A stretch of DNA of 31,930 nt from a virus (lineage: Duplodnaviria; Heunggongvirae; Uroviricota; Caudoviricetes). Below the pieces are notes generated by a model. That model made no database searches. It had not been told where the DNA came from and saw only the letters and a list, made by a program, of their open reading frames with translations. Shown in pieces: positions 1 through 11,383 of the stretch; position 1 is the first letter of the stretch; each line of letters starts with the position of its first letter. The position numbers and the translations under genes are program-made. The stretch is from the IMG/VR virus record IMGVR_UViG_2565956721_000004, positions 1 to 31,930 of that record, one strand, 5' to 3'.

Positions 1-169
1 TATCGCGTCCTCAACAATGAATTTTGTGATGCGGTGCCTGGTGCCTCCAGGTGACGTTAACCAGTTAACAATTAACGCCGGATACAGAGAATCCACCCAT
101 AACACTGTTTTTGGTTTTAACTGTTCCGCGTGCGCTGAGCCGCATTCACCGCATCACAAAATTCACTTT

Positions 170-228
170 AAAAAGGGCGGCAGAGCAGTCACGGAGTAGA
201 ACTGATACCGCCAAAAGTCACCAGAAAA
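170..228 (-). ncRNA. dicF: DicF-like small RNA (cell-division inhibitor sRNA of Qin-type prophages)
   Basis: Reverse complement of 175-227 reads TTTCTGGTGACTTTTGGCGGTATCAGTTCTACTCCGTGACTGCTCTGCCGCCC followed by a U-run (170-174). This is near-identical to the E. coli DicF sRNA as I recall it, and it lies directly downstream of the ydfC-like gene as in Qin. Confidence 0.75.
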
Positions 229-567
229 TTGATAACAGAGGGCGTTGCAGCGGAGTTGTCACTTAAGCGTATGGTCAACCTGACAACCCGGTGTCCTCAA
301 CGGGGAAGGAATAACCCCGCCATACTTACCGCCGCGCCATTTCGCGGAGTGCCACAACCGGAAGCGCACGGTCGACGAAAATTTAACGACAGGCTATCTG
401 TGAACCAGCTACCTCGCCGTGCGCTTTCGCGTTATGGTCTGACTTTTCAGGGAAATATCCTTTCAGTAAACTGTCAGTGCCGGATGCTCACCCGTGTCCG
501 GCGCACGCACTCCACCTCACCCGTGGAGAACTCCTTAATTACCAACCTTAGCTTCGTTGGTTAGCTA

Positions 568-786
568 TTAACGCGGGTATGTAATCATTCTGGCAATGCT
601 TAATGCCGCTGCTTTTTCCAGATTGGTGATATCCTGCTCCAGAGCGGACAGATTTTCAGCCTGCTTAGCCCTGGCTTCATTGGCCCATTTCAAATCCTGC
701 GCTGCATTAATTTTCTGGCGCATCCACTCATAAAGTTCATCATTGGTATAGTCTGGCGCGATGATGACGGGTTCTCGTTTCTGCAT
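568..786 (-). CDS. ydfC: YdfC-like small protein of the dicB-type operon
   Basis: 72-aa ORF with GAGGAA Shine-Dalgarno upstream; sequence and position (between ydfB-like gene and dicF) match Qin YdfC from memory. Confidence 0.7.
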   Translation of the reverse strand: MQKREPVIIAPDYTNDELYEWMRQKINAAQDLKWANEARAKQAENLSALEQDITNLEKAAALSIARMITYPR

Positions 787-815
787 ACTGATTCCTCGCG
801 GTGCTGCTTCGCTTA

Positions 816-944
816 TCAGCCGTTAGATTTTGCCGAGCTGGAAAGCGCCTGTTTAAACTCACTGAAGCTGAGAGCTTCTTCGCCTTCGGCAAGGCCTTCG
901 AAGTATTCTTCGTAAGCCTTTTCCATGATTGTGTCGAAATCCAT
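816..944 (-). CDS. ydfB: YdfB-like small protein (42 aa, below the ORF-track cutoff)
   Basis: Own translation of minus strand: MDFDTIMEKAYEEYFEGLAEGEEALSFSEFKQALSSSAKSNG, with AGGTGAG upstream; tandem with ydfA/ydfC-like genes. The overlapping track ORFs 740-949(-) and 801-998(+) are in other frames and look spurious. Confidence 0.6.
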   Translation of the reverse strand: MDFDTIMEKAYEEYFEGLAEGEEALSFSEFKQALSSSAKSNG

Positions 945-945
945 A

Positions 946-1101
946 TCACTCACCTGAGTTTCTTTCCAGCCAGCGACGGGCACCATTTTCGGTTTTAAAC
1001 GTTTTGCTTTTGGTATACGTCATCGCGGTGAACGTACCGTCCTGGTTGGGGAACACGCCACATACCAGAGATTCGCTGTTGCCAAGATCGATAGTATCCA
1101 T
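946..1101 (-). CDS. ydfA: YdfA-like protein (DUF1391-type), 51 aa
   Basis: Internal Met of track ORF 946-1182 gives MDTIDLGNSESLVCGVFPNQDGTFTAMTYTKSKTFKTENGARRWLERNSGE with GAGGT Shine-Dalgarno; matches Qin YdfA from memory. The longer upstream extension lacks an RBS. Confidence 0.7.
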   Translation of the reverse strand: MDTIDLGNSESLVCGVFPNQDGTFTAMTYTKSKTFKTENGARRWLERNSGE

Positions 1102-1288
1102 GCTGACCTCATTTCCCCTTAACGCCGGGGTAGCGGAACAAAAACCTGCTGCATAGTTATTAAAGTTGAACCCTGCCGTCATGTTCTTACGCCTCGGGCT
1201 GGCTACTTAACCCCTGACCACTGCCTGGTAACTCGAAGTATTGCCCTGCATTCTGTGGGACGGGGTGGGTTGGTATGAAAGGAAGGAT

Positions 1289-1331
1289 ACCTATGGGTAT
1301 TCAAAAAGTAAATACCCATAGGTAATTTTTT
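1289..1331. promoter_or_regulatory. Perfect 14-bp inverted repeat (TACCTATGGGTATT / AATACCCATAGGTA, 8-nt spacer) followed by T7: operator or + strand terminator between repressor gene end and ydfA promoter region
   Basis: Seen directly in sequence (1289-1302 and 1311-1324, T-run 1325-1331). Function is inferred from position only. Confidence 0.35.
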
Positions 1332-1367
1332 TGGTGTGTCTTAACTGGTGACTGGTTGTTTGGTGAG

Positions 1368-1787
1368 TTATGATGCGTTTTGTGCTTTCTTTTTACGGAT
1401 TTCTTCGTAGATCATATTGTAATACTGTTTTTTCTCTTCAAGAGTTTTTAATAAGTTATCCGCTTCACTTTCTGGCAGTTCGTCTAAGAGATCTAAAAAA
1501 ATACGTTGTCGTGGCGTTAGAACCCTTGTTTCATAATTGGAGGCTGTGTTCGTTGATGATGAAACGATACCATCCATCCATCCCCGGGGTAACCCAAAGG
1601 ACTCTTCTATAATCTCCACCATATCATCAGCGATCCGTTTTTTTCCTTTTTTCCCCTCTGGGTACAACATTCTTGATACATAAGAAGGCTCGCGACCGAT
1701 CTTTCTGGCCACGTTAACCGCTTTACCATCGCATTGCTCATCACGAATTTTGATGAGTTGTTGTCGTCTAAATTCATATTTGTCCAT
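1368..1787 (-). CDS. CI/DicA-like phage repressor (HTH)
   Basis: 139 aa from internal Met MDKYEF...; basic N-terminal region and C-terminal LTPRQRIFLDLLDELPESEADNLL resembling the DicA C-terminus (recalled). It is divergent from the Cro-like gene and co-oriented with the ydfABC-dicF operon. Start choice is uncertain (track ORF extends to 1829). Confidence 0.65.
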   Translation of the reverse strand: MDKYEFRRQQLIKIRDEQCDGKAVNVARKIGREPSYVSRMLYPEGKKGKKRIADDMVEIIEESFGLPRGWMDGIVSSSTNTASNYETRVLTPRQRIFLDLLDELPESEADNLLKTLEEKKQYYNMIYEEIRKKKAQNAS

Positions 1788-1813
1788 AGGTAAATAATAG
1801 ATGCGATTACCGC

Positions 1814-1862
1814 AAGGTAAACAACCCAAGGGTATTGACTTTTGTTTACCTGTAGGTATTCT
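1814..1862 (+). promoter_or_regulatory. Divergent immunity promoter/operator region: -35 TTGACT (1835-1840), 16-bp spacer, -10 TATTCT (1857-1862); 10-bp inverted repeat AGGTAAACAA / TTGTTTACCT (1815-1824 / 1842-1851)
   Basis: Sigma70-like hexamers and inverted repeat read directly; they lie between the divergent repressor and cro-like genes. Confidence 0.4.
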
Positions 1863-1887
1863 TTGCTGTGTTTACTAAGGAGTAGCT

Positions 1888-2169
1888 ATGGAAGAATTAA
1901 GAATATTTCTCAATTCTCTTTCGTCAGATGAACAGCGTATGTTTGCATGTGAGTGTGGTACTAGCATCGGTTATCTAAGAAAGGCATTGAGTAAAGGTCA
2001 AATGTTAGGGGCATCGTTATGTGTCCTTATTGAGCGAGCCAGTAATGGTGAAGTTACACGTCAGCAACTAAGGCCTTTTGATTGGATGAATATTTGGCCC
2101 GAGCTGGAAGATACCAAAACGTTAACACAACCACTTACTAGGAGCTTGATTCATGAAAATCAAGCATGA
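1888..2169 (+). CDS. Cro-like DNA-binding protein, YdaS family (DUF1019-like)
   Basis: AAGGAG RBS 6 nt upstream. Motif CGTSIGYLRKALSKG...ASLCVLIERASNGEVTRQQLRPFDW parallels Rac YdaS (GGQSAMARLLGVS...ERCPAIERATRGEVLCEELRPDIDW) as recalled. Confidence 0.7.
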   Translation: MEELRIFLNSLSSDEQRMFACECGTSIGYLRKALSKGQMLGASLCVLIERASNGEVTRQQLRPFDWMNIWPELEDTKTLTQPLTRSLIHENQA

Positions 2170-2578
2170 ACACATCCGCATGGCGATGAATGCCTGGGCG
2201 CGTCCTGATGGCGAAAAAGTTCCAGCAGCTGGAATAACCCAGGCTTATTTTGAGTTGGGTATGACGTTTCCTGAACTGTATGACGACAGCCATCCGGAAG
2301 CCCTGGCTCGCAATACCCAGAAAATTTTCCGCTGGATAGAGAAAGACACCCCTGATGCAGTTGAAAAAATTCAGGCGTTGTTACCAGCGATCGAAAAGGC
2401 AATGCCACCTTTGCTGGTGGCCAGAATGCGCAGCCACAGTTCAGCTTATTTTCGGGAGCTGGTGGAGACGCGGGAGCGACTGGTGAGAGACGCTGATGAT
2501 TTTGTCGCAGTGGCAATCGCCGGTTTCAATCAGATGAACCGTGGTGGCCCGGCAGGAAATGCTGTGGCAGTACATTGA
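2153..2578 (+). CDS. YdaT-like protein (Rac-type toxic partner of YdaS)
   Basis: Begins MKIKHEHI, the same N-terminus I recall for Rac YdaT; start overlaps the end of the cro-like gene (translational coupling). Confidence 0.6.
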   Translation: MKIKHEHIRMAMNAWARPDGEKVPAAGITQAYFELGMTFPELYDDSHPEALARNTQKIFRWIEKDTPDAVEKIQALLPAIEKAMPPLLVARMRSHSSAYFRELVETRERLVRDADDFVAVAIAGFNQMNRGGPAGNAVAVH

Positions 2579-2649
2579 CTGACAATAGCCATATCGAATC
2601 GCTTCCGGCAACTCGTGAGTAAAAAGATTCGGTATCAGAAGAGGTGAGT

Positions 2650-3720
2650 ATGGCTAACGCCTGGCTCAGATTATGGCATGACATGCCAAATGACCCTAAG
2701 TGGCGAACAATTGCCAGGGTGTCAGGGCAGCCAATTGCAACAGTGATGGCAGTGTATATCCACCTCCTGGTGAGCGCGTCACGAAATGTCACGCGAGGTC
2801 ACATTGATGTCACGACAGAAGATTTGGCAAGTGCGCTCGACGTGACAGAAGAGGTAATTGATTCAATTTTGCAGACGATGCAGGGGCGGGTACTTGATGG
2901 TGATTTAATCACTGGATGGGAAAAACGCCAGGTGCTGAAAGAGGACAACGGCAATATTTCGCAAACCGCAAAATCTCCTGCAGAGCGCAAGAGGGCGCAG
3001 CGAGAGAGGGAAAAAATGCGGGAACAAAATGGCGATTGTCACGGCGCGTCACGAAATGTCACGCACATGTCACGACAAGTCACGACAGATAAAGATACAG
3101 ATAGAGATACAGATAAAGAAGATCAAAACACTATGGTCCATGGCGTAAAAAACGCCACGAACCATGTAGGGGATGTTCAGACCGTCACTCCTGGCCAGCC
3201 CGCAGGCACGACACCGGAAGCCGATTCAGCGTATGCGCTGAAAGCCGATTCGGGCGCTGTGCAGCAGGCGATGACCGCAGGGCCGGAGCAATCACACCAA
3301 CTGCAGCAGCCTGAAGCCGATTCCGCCATTCAGCGGGAAGCCGATCGGGTAGTCCCGGAAAACACCGGGCAGCCTGTGGGACGAGTGGATTATCCGGATG
3401 TGTTCGAACAGGTCTGGCGGGAATACCCGTTACGAGCCGGGGCAAACCCGAAGAAATCCGCTTTCAGTGCCTGGAAGGCCAGATTACGCGAGGGGGTGCC
3501 ACCAGAGGCCATGCTGGATGGTGTGAGGCGTTACACAAGATACCTAGCTGCTACCGGGAAAACGGGAACGGAATTTGTTCAGCGAGCGACGACGTTTTTT
3601 GGACCGGACCGGAATTTTGAAAACCCCTGGTTGCTCCCGGTAAGCGGCACGAACAACCAGCGTTGTGTTAATCATATTTCTGAACCGGACACCGAAATTC
3701 CGCCGGGATTCAGAGGGTAA
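2650..3720 (+). CDS. Phage replication initiator / replisome organizer (YdaU/DUF1376-like N-terminus) carrying internal origin iterons
   Basis: ATG at 2650 with AGAAGAGG RBS (track starts at GTG 2644). N-terminus AWLRLWHDMPNDPKWRTIA resembles replisome-organizer N-domains. Position after cro/ydaT is typical. Contains the iteron clusters listed below. Confidence 0.6.
   Translation: MANAWLRLWHDMPNDPKWRTIARVSGQPIATVMAVYIHLLVSASRNVTRGHIDVTTEDLASALDVTEEVIDSILQTMQGRVLDGDLITGWEKRQVLKEDNGNISQTAKSPAERKRAQREREKMREQNGDCHGASRNVTHMSRQVTTDKDTDRDTDKEDQNTMVHGVKNATNHVGDVQTVTPGQPAGTTPEADSAYALKADSGAVQQAMTAGPEQSHQLQQPEADSAIQREADRVVPENTGQPVGRVDYPDVFEQVWREYPLRAGANPKKSAFSAWKARLREGVPPEAMLDGVRRYTRYLAATGKTGTEFVQRATTFFGPDRNFENPWLLPVSGTNNQRCVNHISEPDTEIPPGFRG
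2774..2816. repeat. Iteron cluster 1: four GTCAC(G/A) repeats phased ~10-11 bp (2778, 2788, 2798, 2809)
   Basis: Read directly. The 21-mer GCGCGTCACGAAATGTCACGC (2774-2794) recurs identically at 3044-3064. Confidence 0.6.
3038..3125. repeat. Iteron cluster 2: five GTCACG repeats phased 10-11 bp (3038, 3048, 3058, 3069, 3079) followed by GATA-rich A/T stretch (3088-3125); candidate phage origin of replication
   Basis: Read directly. The architecture (helically phased iterons plus adjacent A/T-rich DNA inside the initiator gene) mirrors lambda ori inside gene O. Confidence 0.6.
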
Positions 3721-3757
3721 CAGATTTCAGGTCATGGGGTAATTTTCAGGAGGGCTT

Positions 3758-4174
3758 GTGGCAAAAGTTTTTACTCCCGAACTGCGGGAAGAAGTGAAGG
3801 CGCGCATTGTGGAACTGGTACGCAGAGATGGGCGAAAAACGCGTAAACAACTGGAAAATGAAACCGGGGCGACGAGACACCTGATAGAAGTTCTGGTGAA
3901 AGAGCTGGTAGTTAGTGGCGCAGTATATGGTTCAGGACATGGAATATTTCCTTCGGAGCAGGCTCGTAAGGACTGGGGAAAAGCCCGCAAAAAAATGTCG
4001 AGAGCGGCAGTGAAAAAGAAGAGCGACCCTGACCTGATTTATTCATTGCTAGATGGCGAAATACGCCGTTACAACAGACGACAGAATATAATTTGTCGCG
4101 AGTGTCGTCAGAGCGAAGTTATGCAGCGCATACTGGAATTTTATCAGGGAAATGTTCGGTATTTATTGAAGTGA
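3758..4174 (+). CDS. Hypothetical basic protein (possible replication/regulatory accessory)
   Basis: GTG start with strong AGGAGG RBS (3748-3753); 138 aa, Lys/Arg-rich; no recognisable catalytic motif. Confidence 0.5.
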   Translation: MAKVFTPELREEVKARIVELVRRDGRKTRKQLENETGATRHLIEVLVKELVVSGAVYGSGHGIFPSEQARKDWGKARKKMSRAAVKKKSDPDLIYSLLDGEIRRYNRRQNIICRECRQSEVMQRILEFYQGNVRYLLK

Positions 4175-4310
4175 CGAAATTAAAGAGCATTAGTTCAGAT
4201 ATTAATTGACACTTCGATGGCACAGGCCCAGACCTAGTCTGGTTGTCAGCTTTGAGCCAGGTGAACGTTGGTATCGTTAGTTTGTATTAATCAACGGAGA
4301 ATAGGCCAAA

Positions 4311-4408: not shown

Positions 4409-7207
4409 ATGTGGGGAAGTGAAAACAAACAAAATCTGGACGTACTGGATCCTGTGCAGTTGGTGCGTATCGAAGCGGTACACCGGGGGTTCCTTTACCA
4501 GCATCTTTACGCTGTAGGCTGCTTACTTTTGGCGCAGAGGGCTGCTATGGACTCAGTAACTGTCGAGCTTGATGAGGATATTGAGCTGAAATCCAAACAG
4601 GAACGTCTCTACATTCAGGTTAAAACCCGTTCAAAACCTATTATGCCCAACGATGTGTCGGGGGCTCTGGAGCGATTTGTAAAGCTCAGAAATGAGCATA
4701 CTTCGGCAAACCGCGAAGGGGTGGCTTCTTTTGTGATTATTGTAAACCAGGCGCCTGGACCGCTGCTTCAGAAGATGATTGACGATAAAAAGCTTCCTTC
4801 TGATGTTCTTATTGTCTGGCCCCAGTCGATAGCTGGACGTCACCCGGCACTTCCGCCCGCATGGAGTACTCTGGCTGATGCGGCCACATGGTGTATCGCA
4901 GAAGCAGAAAAGCTGAAATTTTCACTATTGTCCCCAGAATCCTTGATTTGGAAGTTAGCAGGATTGGTTCAGCTTGCCGCCACCGGAGGCGATACCAATG
5001 GACAACATACGTTTTTCACGGAAGAACTTACTGAACTATTTGAACAGTTGATCGTTCAGCTACAGGACTTTCCTGCACCACCAGCACTGTACCGCCCACA
5101 AAACGAAGAACCTTCTCTCACATCTGGTGAGCGGATCCGTATCCTTTGTGGACTCTCAGGTGCAGGCAAGACAGCTTGGGCCGCACAGGCCGCATTACAC
5201 TCCACTGCACTTTGTGCTTATTACGACACCGGTGATCTTCCCGGTCCAGCTCTGGCCAGTACGCTGGTGCGCGAGATGGCTGCTAGATTTACAGCCCGTG
5301 ACCAAGACGGTTTGCGCAGGATTTTGCTCCCCGGTGCCAGTGGTTTTGAGGCTCTTAGGAGTTTTGATACCTACCTGAAAGAGCAGGGTACCACCTTGGT
5401 GCTGGTTCTGGATAACGCCCATCGTGTACCTGCGGAAAATCTACGGGATGTTCTGAATGCAACTACACATATTCGTTTTGTGCTGTTGTGCCAGCCTCAC
5501 GAAAACGTTCGCGAACTGGAGGTCATGACGGGGCTACAGCGCGAGGGCCTGCAGGGATGGAATCTCGATACGGTAGCTGTCGTTGTAAACGATATCGGAG
5601 GATTTGCCACCGCTATGGGATACGAGCAGCTACGGGCTTACACTGGTGGTCTTCCCCTGTATGTAGAGAGCGCCGCAAAAATCGCCGTTTCTGATTATGA
5701 GCGTAATGTCGATGCTCTGTGTGCTGAACTCCAGCAACAAACCCATACTGCGGAAACCGCCCAAGAAATTATTCTGTCACGTGTATTTCAGGGATTTGAA
5801 TCACTACTTCAGAGCGCGCTGGCATTGTTCAGTCTCTCTGACGTAGGGCTGAGTCGCGAAGAGATTTCTACGCTCCTAATCAATTCGCTGAACATTTCAC
5901 CAAGCAGTGCGGCTTCTTTAATTAGGAAAATGCGCGCTACTGGCACTATTGAAATTTATGGAAACCAGACCCTGAAGGTACATGATGCTGTCAGGGGGCT
6001 AGGACTGCAACATCTGGAACTGATGGATCAGGGTATATCGAACAAAGCGCTACTAGCGCTGAAAGACCTTTTAGTTGAAAGTCTTCATAATACCCGCAAT
6101 ACAAAACGGTTATCGTTGTTGACTCAACTTTATATTAAGCTCAATGATGTCACGACGTTGATCGAACTCTCAGGCCAAGAAATGTTTTATGAGATGGGCG
6201 TGACGGTCGACATTCTTGCAAGCTTGGAGCGTGCTGCAACATCGGACTTATTGGGACCTGTTCATAAATTCTGGGCATTGGATGGCCTTGTTTTCGTTGA
6301 GCTTAAAGACGGAATATCCGACCACATTGCTCAGAGGTTAAACATCATGGGAGCTTTACTTGCGGAGCACAAGTTCGGCTATCAAGAAGAGATGGCCTAT
6401 GCAATGAAACGAATGTTATTTTCGGCAGAAAGCAATGATGCACGAGAAGTTCAAAAGCTGGCACAGGAAGTCCGCCCCCAACTCCCAGATGAAGAACATA
6501 AACGCATCTTTGACTACAACCATGCCATTGCACTCTGGAGATTAAAAAAACTCAAGGATGCTGAAACATTAAGCTGTAATGTTATACAAGGGTACTATTC
6601 TTTATTTGGTATCACACCTGCTGATGTCATAGGAAAAAACGCCGACGCATTATGGAAAACTATTAATCATTCCGAAAATATGCAGGAACACTTTAAACAT
6701 ATGGCTGATGCTCTGGAGTTGCTGGCCAGAATTCGTGATGCGCAGGGAAAACTGTCACCATTACTGCGTATTCATTCGATGAAGTTCTACAATCTGGCCA
6801 TGGCCCCGGAATCCATGGTCAGGGTGGGCCAAGATCTGGCGGATGAGTTTGTTGCCATAAAGGATTACGACGGTGCCAAGGAAGTCATGGAGCAACATGT
6901 CCTGCCGGTTGTCAATGAGGCAGGTCTAGTACATCGACTGATTCAGGTTCGAAGCCAATACGCAGTCATATTGGCACTATCGGGTCAGCATAAAGCAGCT
7001 GATGTCGAAATGCAGCGCCTTGCTCCCTATATCGAAGGCCTCACAGGTGTACAGCGTCAAGAAATCCAAAATCAATCAAATTACATCGTACAGCTTGCCC
7101 ATAAAGCAGCAAAGACTAAATTAACTGAAGTTTTTGGTGCGGTCGGCCGGAATGAACAATGCCCCTGTGGCTCGGGAATAAAGTACAAAAAATGTCACGG
7201 TGCCTGA
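4409..7207 (+). CDS. STAND-type P-loop NTPase with N-terminal Mrr-like nuclease-type domain, TPR-like helical C-terminal region and terminal SEC-C zinc motif (candidate antiphage sensor)
   Basis: 932-aa ORF with AAGGA RBS. Motifs read from the translation: D55...Q70-V-K72 (hhhQxK, Mrr/PD-(D/E)xK-like); Walker A G248-LSGAGKT255 (nt 5150-5173); Walker B L330-VLVLDN336; GLPL motif 414-417 (NB-ARC/STAND hallmark); long helical repeat region; C918-P-C920-GSGIKYKK-C929-H930 (SEC-C type). Fold and function are inferred. Confidence 0.85.
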   Translation: MWGSENKQNLDVLDPVQLVRIEAVHRGFLYQHLYAVGCLLLAQRAAMDSVTVELDEDIELKSKQERLYIQVKTRSKPIMPNDVSGALERFVKLRNEHTSANREGVASFVIIVNQAPGPLLQKMIDDKKLPSDVLIVWPQSIAGRHPALPPAWSTLADAATWCIAEAEKLKFSLLSPESLIWKLAGLVQLAATGGDTNGQHTFFTEELTELFEQLIVQLQDFPAPPALYRPQNEEPSLTSGERIRILCGLSGAGKTAWAAQAALHSTALCAYYDTGDLPGPALASTLVREMAARFTARDQDGLRRILLPGASGFEALRSFDTYLKEQGTTLVLVLDNAHRVPAENLRDVLNATTHIRFVLLCQPHENVRELEVMTGLQREGLQGWNLDTVAVVVNDIGGFATAMGYEQLRAYTGGLPLYVESAAKIAVSDYERNVDALCAELQQQTHTAETAQEIILSRVFQGFESLLQSALALFSLSDVGLSREEISTLLINSLNISPSSAASLIRKMRATGTIEIYGNQTLKVHDAVRGLGLQHLELMDQGISNKALLALKDLLVESLHNTRNTKRLSLLTQLYIKLNDVTTLIELSGQEMFYEMGVTVDILASLERAATSDLLGPVHKFWALDGLVFVELKDGISDHIAQRLNIMGALLAEHKFGYQEEMAYAMKRMLFSAESNDAREVQKLAQEVRPQLPDEEHKRIFDYNHAIALWRLKKLKDAETLSCNVIQGYYSLFGITPADVIGKNADALWKTINHSENMQEHFKHMADALELLARIRDAQGKLSPLLRIHSMKFYNLAMAPESMVRVGQDLADEFVAIKDYDGAKEVMEQHVLPVVNEAGLVHRLIQVRSQYAVILALSGQHKAADVEMQRLAPYIEGLTGVQRQEIQNQSNYIVQLAHKAAKTKLTEVFGAVGRNEQCPCGSGIKYKKCHGA

Positions 7208-7484
7208 GTCTTTGTACGACCATGCGGGCCTTATTGTCTTGCTATTGCTCTTATGGTTCGCCTTTCTGATTGATTTCATATTGGCGAGGTGACGGGAGTT
7301 AAGTAGAATGGCTGCGGGTGCTTGAGGCTATCTGTCTCAGGCATGAACACCAAAGGCAGATAGAGAAAAGCCCCAGTTAACATTACGCGTCCTGCAAGAC
7401 GCTTAACATTAATCTGAGGCTCAATCTATGAACGGCAAATCTAGGTTAGCCTCTTACGTGCCGAAAGGCAAGGAGAAGCAGGCT

Positions 7485-7640
7485 ATGAAGCAGCAAAAGG
7501 CGATGTTAATCGCCCTGATCGTCATCTGTTTAACCGTCATTGTGACGGCACTGGTAACGAGGAAAGACCTCTGCGAGGTACGAATCCGAACCGGCCAGAC
7601 GGAGGTCGCTGTCTTCACAGCTTACGAACCTGAGGAGTAA
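7485..7640 (+). CDS. hokD: Hok/Gef-family type I toxin (HokD/RelF-like), with overlapping upstream mok-like frame starting 7428
   Basis: 51 aa MKQQKAMLIALIVICLTVIVTALVTRKDLCEVRIRTGQTEVAVFTAYEPEE: single transmembrane helix plus conserved Hok C-terminal motif; matches HokD as I recall it. Confidence 0.8.
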   Translation: MKQQKAMLIALIVICLTVIVTALVTRKDLCEVRIRTGQTEVAVFTAYEPEE

Positions 7641-11073: not shown

Positions 11074-11149
11074 GGCCCTTTAGCTCAGTGGTGAGAGCGA
11101 GCGACTCATAATCGCCAGGTCGCTGGTTCAAATCCAGCAAGGGCCACCA
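11074..11149 (+). tRNA. tRNA-Ile2 (anticodon CAU, ileX-like; formally could decode Met)
   Basis: Cloverleaf folded by hand: acceptor GGCCCTT/AAGGGCC, anticodon loop CTCATAA, T-loop TTCAAAT, 3' CCA; close to E. coli ileX as recalled. Confidence 0.8.
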
Positions 11150-11150
11150 A

Positions 11151-11227
11151 CCGCCACTAGCTCATCAGGAAAGAGCGTCAACCCTTTAAGTTGAGTGTGC
11201 GAGGTTCGAGTCCCCGGTGGCGGTCCA
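11151..11227 (+). tRNA. Atypical tRNA-like gene, anticodon UUU (Lys) with C at position 33 and 5'-CC start
   Basis: Hand fold: acceptor CCGCCAC/GTGGCGG, U8, D-loop with GG, anticodon stem TCAAC/GTTGA with loop CCTTTAA, T-loop TTCGAGT (one A-C mismatch in T-stem), CCA end. It is only 1-2 nt from its neighbours. Confidence 0.5.
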
Positions 11228-11229
11228 GT

Positions 11230-11305
<76 letters not shown>

Positions 11306-11308
11306 TAT

Positions 11309-11383
<75 letters not shown>

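Follow-up and report, generated by a model that had tools for sequence, protein, structure and literature searches.

Does the left end of this viral genome, where a Qin-like leftward operon and a divergent set of regulatory genes flank a single repressor, record the joining of two unlike prophages, or is it an immunity region of a familiar kind? The preliminary description of the window (the whole stretch of 31,930 nt analysed, to which all coordinates refer) took the former view, proposing a Qin-type dicF/ydfABC operon joined to a Rac-type YdaS/YdaT pair, with two independent division-inhibiting modules under one DicA-like repressor. We consider it very probable that positions 1–2578 are instead an immunity region regulating early functions in a lambdoid prophage of the Tritos/Rac/Qin group, and that they are organized much like the lambda switch. 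Its mosaicism, as judged by alignment, is of the ordinary lambdoid kind, with an mEp043-type cassette (∼1271–2140) set into a Tritos-like backbone.

The leftward operon, all on the minus strand, comprises the following features.

175–226, minus strand: DicF small RNA gene (Rfam RF00039, 71.5 bits against a gathering score of 48, covering model positions 1–52 of 52)
568–786, minus strand: ydfC (98.6% amino acid identity to K-12 Qin YdfC; phrog_1744)
816–944, minus strand: ydfB (100% amino acid identity to K-12 Qin YdfB)
946–1101, minus strand: ydfA (DUF1391), which heads the leftward operon transcribed from PL (PF07151, 94.5 bits)
1114–1277, minus strand: PL transcript leader, part of the shared backbone (86.6% identity to the racR–ydaG intergenic region of Rac)

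The genes were named correctly at the outset: DicF exceeds the Rfam gathering score, and YdfA, YdfB, and YdfC are 96–100% identical to their Qin counterparts (YdfA is 96% identical to K-12 YdfA and 86% to Rac YdaF). DicF inhibits translation of ftsZ; the window dicF differs from that of K-12 by 2 substitutions. Positions 1–1139 are 97.4% identical to Qin DNA, a span whose left end is the base that precedes the dicB ATG and whose right end, where Qin identity stops, is 38 nt upstream of ydfA. The PL leader falls in a 98.3% match to phage Tritos (positions 1–1270). The suspicion that the window edge might hide dicB is also borne out, since in the 99.6%-identical E. coli AR_0089 an intact dicB adjoins window position 1, ending at the base before it, and is succeeded leftwards by ydfD, an exonuclease gene, and an integrase gene; placed from AR_0089 and K-12, dicB begins a single base outside position 1. 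Judging from these relatives, dicB is probably present in the window's own genome. With ydfA, ydfB, and ydfC upstream of dicF on the same strand, the arrangement is that of the ydfABC–dicF–dicB operon, from whose transcript DicF would be processed. Within the window, tblastn searches with Rem (the DicA antirepressor), KilR, SieB, and DicB matched only hokD and yielded no antirepressor candidate.

Upstream of this operon lie the repressor gene and its two flanking control regions.

1284–1324, minus strand: OL/PL, with two operators, TACCTATGGGTA at 1288–1299 and TACCCATAGGTA at 1313–1324 (exact motif matches)
1312–1307 and 1289–1284, minus strand: candidate PL promoter, −35 TTTACT and −10 TATCCT separated by a 17-nt spacer and overlapped by the OL operators (read by eye)
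1368–1787, minus strand: CI-type repressor, 139 aa (phrog_5736 over its full length, 1.2e-69)
1794–1862: OR, with operators at 1808–1819, 1823–1834 (1 mismatch), and 1847–1858 (motif matches)
1821–1816 and 1799–1794, minus strand: −35 and −10 of a PRM-like promoter at OR (consensus match in promoter scan)
1835–1840 and 1857–1862, plus strand: TTGACT and TATTCT of a PR-like promoter at OR (consensus match in promoter scan)

The layout is of lambda type: the repressor gene and cro point away from each other, an operator is repeated in the interval that separates them, and it recurs at the leftward promoter. Exact TACCNNNNGGTA sites number four in the 31.9-kb window against 0.14 expected, a count that none of 100 shuffled sequences reached, and all four lie within the promoter regions on either side of the repressor gene; a fifth site, with one mismatch, is at 1823. 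The same motif occurs in phage mEp043 (NC_019706), with three copies at OR and two at the annotated PL, where an operator likewise overlaps the −10 element, and residues 1–86 of our repressor, its N-terminal helix-turn-helix (HTH) domain, are 65% identical to mEp043 cI. Since mEp043 is otherwise different yet shares both motif and DNA-binding domain, the two travel together, and from this co-occurrence the repressor is predicted to bind the TACCNNNNGGTA operators and to repress PL and PR. The preliminary description had placed one repressor between a leftward dicF/dicB-type and a rightward Cro/YdaT operon, and because one operator motif occurs at both promoters, it is sound to infer their joint control by this repressor. 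The promoter scan returned no more hits than did shuffled sequence (3 versus 3.3), so the promoters are assigned by their position and their overlap with operators. PL itself was missed by the scan, as it fits 8 of 12 consensus positions and falls under the threshold; its layout is that of PR here and of the annotated mEp043 PL, and it is put forward as a candidate on the basis of operator position and of analogy with those two promoters.

Comparison with relatives delimits the cassette, which is made up of OL, the sequence for the repressor DNA-binding domain, OR, and cro. Tritos (OV696610) matches the window at 98.3% DNA identity in the left backbone mentioned above and at 90.7% over positions 2141–4259, leaving only positions 1271–2140 different, and it has the same gene order: exonuclease, ydfD, dicB, DicF, ydfC/B/A, a short CI, Cro, a YdaT-type gene, and replication genes. 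Its CI shares with our repressor a tail of the DicA type, but has another N-terminal HTH domain, and its Cro is unrelated to ours; the operators should therefore differ, and Tritos and this prophage should be heteroimmune. The flanks of mEp043, in contrast, are lambda/P22-like, with an N antiterminator gene to the left and a Phage_CII-type cII to the right, and that phage has neither the dicBF operon nor YdaT. The Qin dicA–dicC/dicBF region of K-12, in which DicA, DicC, and the PL-type dicBF operon have been characterized (PMC10448788), likewise has a short repressor devoid of S24 in control of a PL-type operon, but the DNA-binding domain of that repressor, its operators, and its Cro (DicC) are unrelated to those of the window. 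The exact cassette was not found in deposited phages, a megablast of the phage collection retrieving the backbone leader (1140–1277) alone, and has been seen in prophages only. Among 5426 complete E. coli genomes, the immunity core is present at ≥95% identity in 822; it is accompanied by the window ydaT in 813 and by the window left flank in 533. We read the locus as an ordinary lambdoid immunity region, shared by hundreds of E. coli genomes, rather than as a special Qin–Rac hybrid.

This frequency also bears on whether the locus is a decayed remnant with an inert “repressor” ORF, its dicBF genes kept silent in some other way, such as by H-NS/Fis as in cryptic prophages. In favor of decay, the repressor lacks any Pfam domain and carries a hypothetical annotation, the integrase gene is frameshifted in the nearest genome, AR_0089, and silencing of dicBF by nucleoid proteins has been mentioned (PMC10448788). 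Yet every ORF here is intact, the core is conserved in those 822 genomes, operators of perfect palindrome type stand at both promoters, the same architecture recurs in the sequenced phages Tritos and mEp043, and replication, Q, lysis, terminase, and tail genes follow in the rest of the window. We therefore regard decay as quite improbable.

The origin of the rightward genes, on which the proposed Qin–Rac joining depended, can be read from the following features.

1888–2169, plus strand: Cro-like HTH regulator, 93 aa (phrog_35)
2146–2163: YdaT-box TTGATTCATGAAAATCAA, spanning the ydaT start codon at the cro/ydaT junction (exact TTGATTN6AATCAA match)
2153–2578, plus strand: YdaT, a 141-aa transcription factor equivalent to CII, from a family of POU-like HTH tetramers (PF06254, 39.9 bits with the cutoff at 21; phrog_163 “CII-like activator”)
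2644–3720, plus strand: replication initiation protein (O-like), shared backbone (phrog_3729, 7.6e-251; 96% identical to its Tritos homolog)

These had been called YdaS-like and YdaT-like. The second name holds at the family level, while the first does not: the Cro-like protein scores below the Pfam YdaS threshold (PF15943, 25.9 bits against a cutoff of 30), and its identity to Rac YdaS, 39% over 44 residues (50% over 30 in another BLASTP), is below the 72.6% over 73 aa that it shares with mEp043 Cro. It also matches the PDB “Cro” entries 8c7k/8co2 at 1.5e-10. YdaT is 97% identical to its Tritos homolog, and two solved structures match it over the full length, PDB 3c4r at ∼95% (1e-88) and 8bt1, the CP-933P protein, at ∼84% (2.9e-79); it is only 33% identical to Rac YdaT, and 37% to YdfX, a truncated YdaT homolog of Qin itself. 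Because Qin too encodes such a homolog, a YdaT-type gene is no marker of Rac ancestry. The pair is thus no closer to the Rac alleles, YdaT and Cro both being nearer to other lineages. The single exact match to TTGATTN6AATCAA in the window, at 2146–2163, has the sequence of the footprinted OM site of CP-933P YdaT (PMC9986795), and the Rac YdaT-box (PMC11879457) differs from it by one base.

The repressor is equally unlike its counterparts in both of those prophages where DNA binding is concerned. BLASTP found no similarity between DicA and its N-terminal DNA-binding domain, which is not a DicA-homologous XRE-type HTH, and no alignment with RacR, either at E ≤ 10 or at E ≤ 0.01. The DicA alignment is confined to residues 89–134, with 33% identity over those 46 residues, so that of the “DicA-like repressor” first proposed only the C-terminal tail survives. 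Alignment against DicA/DicC and RacR/YdaS had been suggested as the means of deciding the matter, and what it reveals is a coherent module of repressor DNA-binding domain, operators, and cro of single, mEp043-type origin. Such a module, and an intact dicB just past the window edge (as seen in relatives) combined with rightward genes of no specific Rac descent, are the two outcomes that the preliminary description had named as refuting it.

A recombinant of a Qin-type leftward operon with a Rac-type YdaS/YdaT pair, carrying two division inhibitors under one DicA-like repressor, would account for the Qin identity of ydfABC–dicF, the Pfam family of YdaT, the DicA resemblance of the repressor tail, and short Rac-like stretches at 1114–1277 and 2147–2176; moreover, expression of Rac YdaT does cause filamentation (PMC11879457). 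These stretches, for which direct Rac ancestry was considered and rejected, are however backbone linkers, 98% identical in Tritos, the second being the conserved YdaT-box. Tritos and hundreds of E. coli prophages have both flanks together, the YdaT is of the CP-933P/CFT073 type (84–95% identity), and the genes to the right show no specific Rac ancestry. The postulated second division-inhibiting module fares no better, as the CP-933P-type YdaT is reported to act as a CII equivalent with undetectable toxicity (PMC8630535) and to be unable to switch on the host rcsA promoter, the route by which Rac YdaT causes filamentation (PMC11879457); filamentation by that route was not observed with the CP-933P type. 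By these alignments the recombinant is largely refuted, and we judge it very improbable. What the window does have in common with CP-933P PaaR2–YdaS–YdaT and Rac RacR–YdaS–YdaT is a CI/Cro/CII-equivalent logic, in roles that experiments have demonstrated for the homologs from CP-933P and Rac (PMC8630535, PMC11879457), but our repressor is unrelated to PaaR2 as well as to RacR, and the paaA2–parE2 toxin–antitoxin pair is absent.

The composition of the repressor supplies the one mildly new point of this analysis. Sequence searches of Pfam and PDB returned no significant match to it, and its identity was established through PHROGs, a search of a large protein collection, and tblastn against phages. 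The existing annotation of the gene reads “hypothetical protein” and nothing more. The N-domain is 70–85% identical to the N-domains of S24/LexA-type repressors of 221–242 aa, and those relatives carry Peptidase_S24 (PF00717), which is absent from the 139-aa protein; beyond residue ∼88 the latter aligns with the helical tail of DicA and Tritos CI and not with an S24 fold, and residues 21–139 as a whole are 39.5% identical to Tritos CI. The protein is accordingly short, helical-tailed, and S24-free, like the ∼135–140-aa repressors of the DicA family. In an AF2 model (pLDDT 81), a disordered linker joins the HTH domain to a predicted helical hairpin at 92–138. A fold search with this model gave as its top match the antirepressor-controlled SPC32H Rep, a weak hit (E = 1e-3, TM 0.47), and further matches were generic XRE HTH proteins, used solely as support for the HTH fold. 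We therefore describe the repressor as a putative domain-swapped short type, in which the DNA-binding domain is of mEp043 type and the tail of DicA type.

That it could nonetheless be SOS-inducible, through RecA-stimulated self-cleavage as in lambda CI and the 228-aa mEp043 cI with its S24 self-cleavage domain, is suggested by the 65–85% identity of its N-domain to repressors of that class, but is rejected as extremely improbable because there is no S24 domain, the region past residue ∼88 being instead of the tail type just described, and short DicA-type repressors are reported to be uncleaved and antirepressor-responsive (PMC10448788). With a DicA/Tritos-type tail in place of the S24 domain, induction of the domain-swapped repressor would probably proceed via an antirepressor or a bistable switch. 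A natural exchange, in which the operator specificity of an SOS-cleavable mEp043-type cI (TACCNNNNGGTA operators) was kept and a non-cleavable DicA-type tail added, is a possibility that we advance tentatively, thinking it somewhat more apt to be wrong than right. If true, it would give SOS-resistant immunity against mEp043-type phages to a prophage found in ∼15% of complete E. coli genomes, and would place dicF and dicB under a repressor that has one specificity and a different induction signal, for example an antirepressor or a stochastic switch. The protein is in any case a clean example of the shuffling of DNA-binding domains and tails among lambdoid repressors.

Taken as a lambda-like immunity region, the locus may work as follows. 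The short CI-type repressor would bind three operators at OR (1808–1858) and two at OL (1288–1324), shutting off PR, and with it cro, ydaT, and the replication genes, as well as PL, with ydfA–ydfB–ydfC–dicF–dicB–ydfD–exonuclease. The Cro-like protein would oppose the repressor at OR, and YdaT, as CII equivalent, may act on the YdaT-box to turn on a PRE-like reverse promoter, and so raise repressor levels. Loss of the repressor would release the PL transcript, from which DicF would be cut; DicF, together with DicB encoded just past the window, could then block FtsZ-dependent division.

Beyond correct annotation, the importance of the locus is small. Many non-K-12 strains, including UMNF18 and APEC O78 relatives, have dicBF under a repressor whose DNA specificity is not that of DicA, so what is known in K-12 of regulation through DicA operators and Rem does not necessarily apply to them. 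The gene labeled “hypothetical protein” in over 800 complete E. coli genomes now has a name, prophage CI-type repressor, and a set of predicted operators. The label “Toxin YdaT family protein” is likewise better read here as a CII-equivalent regulator.

The region is a lambdoid immunity region, ordinary and very common, of a new and uncharacterised immunity type. The features listed in the preliminary description (DicF, ydfA/B/C and divergent regulators) are present in the sequence, as judged by Rfam, protein identities and Pfam:

175–226, minus strand: DicF (full Rfam model, 71.5 bits against a gathering score of 48)
568–786, minus strand: ydfC, product 98.6% identical to the K-12 Qin protein
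816–944, minus strand: ydfB, product 100% identical to the K-12 Qin protein
946–1101, minus strand: ydfA, product 96% identical to the K-12 Qin protein
1312–1284, minus strand: candidate leftward promoter PL at OL (TTTACT, 17-nt spacer, TATCCT), overlapped by the promoter-proximal operator
1288 and 1313: OL operators, exact TACCNNNNGGTA, between repressor and ydfA
1368–1787, minus strand: repressor ORF, 139 aa
1821–1794, minus strand: leftward promoter match at OR, overlapped by operators
1808 and 1847: OR operators, exact TACCNNNNGGTA, between repressor and cro
1823: fifth site of the TACCNNNNGGTA type, one mismatch
1835–1862, plus strand: rightward promoter match at OR (TTGACT, 16-nt spacer, TATTCT), overlapped by operators
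1888–2169, plus strand, divergent from the repressor: Cro-like HTH protein, 93 aa
2153–2578, plus strand: YdaT-family protein, 141 aa (PF06254, 39.9 bits against a cutoff of 21)

The repressor start is that of RefSeq and all homologs (MDKYEF); the mechanical ORF begins further upstream. The candidate PL was read by eye, being weaker and under the promoter-scan threshold.

The earlier proposal of a Qin-type operon joined to a Rac-type YdaS/YdaT pair does not fit the joint positions relative to phage Tritos or the protein identities. Tritos matches the window at 1–1270 (98.3%) and 2141–4259 (90.7%), and between these only at 1368–1484 (76%), which encodes the repressor tail. Its gene order is also the same (exonuclease VIII, ydfD, dicB, DicF, ydfC/B/A, short CI, Cro, a 141-aa YdaT-type protein, replication protein); thus, one common backbone holds the dicBF operon, running leftward, together with YdaT and the replication genes, running rightward. 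Judged by these alignments, the exchanged part is the central cassette, at about 1271–2140. On the left it is joined close to where PL transcription is predicted to start, and on the right at the YdaT-box; a third joint falls within the repressor gene, between DNA-binding domain and tail. A Rac donor, suggested by short Rac-like stretches (1114–1277, 86.6%; 965–1092, 87.5%; 16–180, 80.6%; 2147–2176, 96.7% DNA identity), was rejected, these being backbone or linker sequence of the phage group. The Rac leftward operon also opens with a DUF1391 gene, ydaF, 86% identical to the window YdfA.

The cassette itself resembles that of the lambdoid phage mEp043. The palindrome-type motif TACCNNNNGGTA occurs in four exact copies in the 31.9-kb window compared to 0.14 expected (0 of 100 shuffles reached four), all adjoining the repressor gene, and the 139-aa repressor probably binds these sites at both OR and OL. 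mEp043 supports this independently: it has three copies of the same motif between its cI and cro genes and two at its annotated PL, again overlapping the −10 element, although its flanks are quite different (N to the left, a lambda-type cII to the right). It follows that motif, DNA-binding domain and Cro travel jointly as one immunity cassette. The claim that one repressor jointly controls both operons is supported by the operators common to OL and OR. A possible fourth, degenerate operator (TGTCCATAGGTA, two mismatches, read by eye) lies over the repressor start codon at 1781–1792.

Residues 1 to ∼75 of the repressor are 70–85% identical, in a large protein collection, to the N-terminal domain of 221–242-aa LexA/S24-type phage repressors from Salmonella, Yersinia, Edwardsiella, Pantoea and Klebsiella, and residues 1–86 are 65% identical to mEp043 cI. 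The repressor's final ∼50 residues can be aligned with the C-terminal tail of DicA and that of the Tritos short CI. Thus, the description “DicA-like” holds for the tail (residues 89–134, 33% identity) but not for the rest of the protein. By sequence the repressor is a hybrid of mEp043-type DNA-binding domain and DicA-type tail, the one point here that is mildly new. Phrog_5736 (“transcriptional regulator”) matches it full length, a Pfam search gave no match, and protein comparison found no similarity to RacR. In the AlphaFold model (mean pLDDT 81), a helical N-domain of HTH type is joined by a disordered linker (76–87) to a C-terminal helical hairpin. The fold matches in the PDB are weak and comprise XRE-type HTH proteins and the Salmonella phage SPC32H protein Rep, itself controlled by an antirepressor.

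The Cro-like protein is 72.6% identical to mEp043 Cro over 73 residues, as compared to 39% over 44 residues for Rac YdaS, and its score of 25.9 does not reach the Pfam YdaS threshold of 30. Its ORF is 17 codons longer than that of mEp043 Cro (93 versus 76 aa); the extra tail (2100–2169) crosses the YdaT-box and enters ydaT, which would be expected of a reading frame extended by the right-hand recombination joint. The YdaT-like protein is 97% identical to its Tritos homolog, about 95% to PDB 3c4r and about 84% to PDB 8bt1, the YdaT of O157:H7 prophage CP-933P, but only 33% to Rac YdaT; Qin encodes a truncated YdaT homolog of its own beside dicC, YdfX, to which identity is 37%. The footprinted CP-933P operator, TTGATTN6AATCAA (PMC9986795), occurs exactly once in the window, at 2146–2163, where it spans the start codon of ydaT; a single base distinguishes it from the Rac YdaT-box (PMC11879457).

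Nor is the proposed second division-inhibiting module supported, which was based on Rac YdaS/YdaT. Filamentation by Rac YdaT runs through the host rcsA promoter, which CP-933P-type YdaT, the type found here, is unable to activate (PMC11879457); CP-933P YdaT shows no toxicity (PMC8630535), and whether Rac YdaS/YdaT are toxins at all is disputed (PMC5917428).

Of the readings considered, a standard lambdoid switch has the best support. Repressor at OR would silence PR (cro, ydaT, replication genes) and at OL would silence PL (ydfABC–dicF–dicB–ydfD–exonuclease), while Cro would counter repressor at OR. YdaT may take the part of CII, working by way of the YdaT-box and a reverse promoter, as its homologs in CP-933P and Rac have been shown to do (PMC8630535, PMC9986795, PMC11879457). 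Upon derepression, DicF with DicB would block division. The hybrid repressor predicts DNA specificity as in an SOS-cleavable cI but another induction route: because it has a DicA-type tail and no S24 domain, induction by an antirepressor or by bistable switching, of the kind described for DicA (PMC10448788), is more likely than RecA-stimulated cleavage. A search of the window for a Rem homolog found none.

The leftward operon is close to that of Qin (97.4% DNA identity over 1–1139), with dicF differing from K-12 dicF at two positions and ydfC, ydfB and ydfA upstream on the same strand. The suspicion that the window edge hides dicB was correct: in the Qin alignment position 1 is the base directly 5′ of the dicB start codon, and in the closest complete E. 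coli genome, AR_0089 (99.6% over 1–4300), dicB ends exactly at the base preceding position 1, followed by ydfD, an exonuclease gene, a DUF4224 gene and an integrase gene adjoining a tRNA-Ser gene. Between dicF and dicB, 16–180 is 80.6% identical to the Rac stretch (L003, 3250–3416) between kilS, a small RNA gene, and kilR, a division inhibitor gene; the sRNA-plus-division-inhibitor arrangement thus has an intergenic segment in common across two prophage lineages.

Among 5426 complete E. coli genomes, 822 carry the cassette (1278–2146, at least 80% coverage, nearly all at least 95% identity), 813 the cassette plus the window's YdaT, 533 the stretch 1–2146 and 271 the stretch 1–4300. Carriers include O157:H7, O111:H-, APEC O78 and UMNF18, all of which label the repressor “hypothetical protein”. 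The dicBF operon and dicF are known from several different prophage contexts, in work that included the strains UMNF18 and APEC O78 (PMC5069750), and kil or dicB division-inhibitor genes downstream of the cI equivalent are a general lambdoid feature (PMC8630535). The same cassette accompanies variant leftward operons at O157:H7 Z1769 (L005, 3894–4268), with an additional 124-aa ORF between ydfC and dicB, and in O111:H- 11128 (L006, 3812–4660), where other ORFs replace ydfB/ydfC.

Elsewhere in the window, a 932-aa ORF (4409–7207, plus strand) is flanked by the replication/Ren-like genes and by hokD. It matches a Cap4-type nuclease at its N-terminus (27 bits), has an AAA ATPase domain and, at its C-terminus, a SEC-C motif, and gives a weak LmuA hit in PADLOC; it resembles an anti-phage defence gene carried by the prophage, although AR_0089 annotates it only as “SEC-C metal-binding domain-containing protein”. 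A hok/sok type I toxin–antitoxin follows (7316–7640, plus strand; sok RNA 110 bits), and its HokD matches that of K-12 Qin at 100% identity. Four tandem tRNA genes (11074–11380, plus strand), annotated Ile, Lys, Thr and Gly in AR_0089, follow the Q antiterminator gene and precede the lysis genes.
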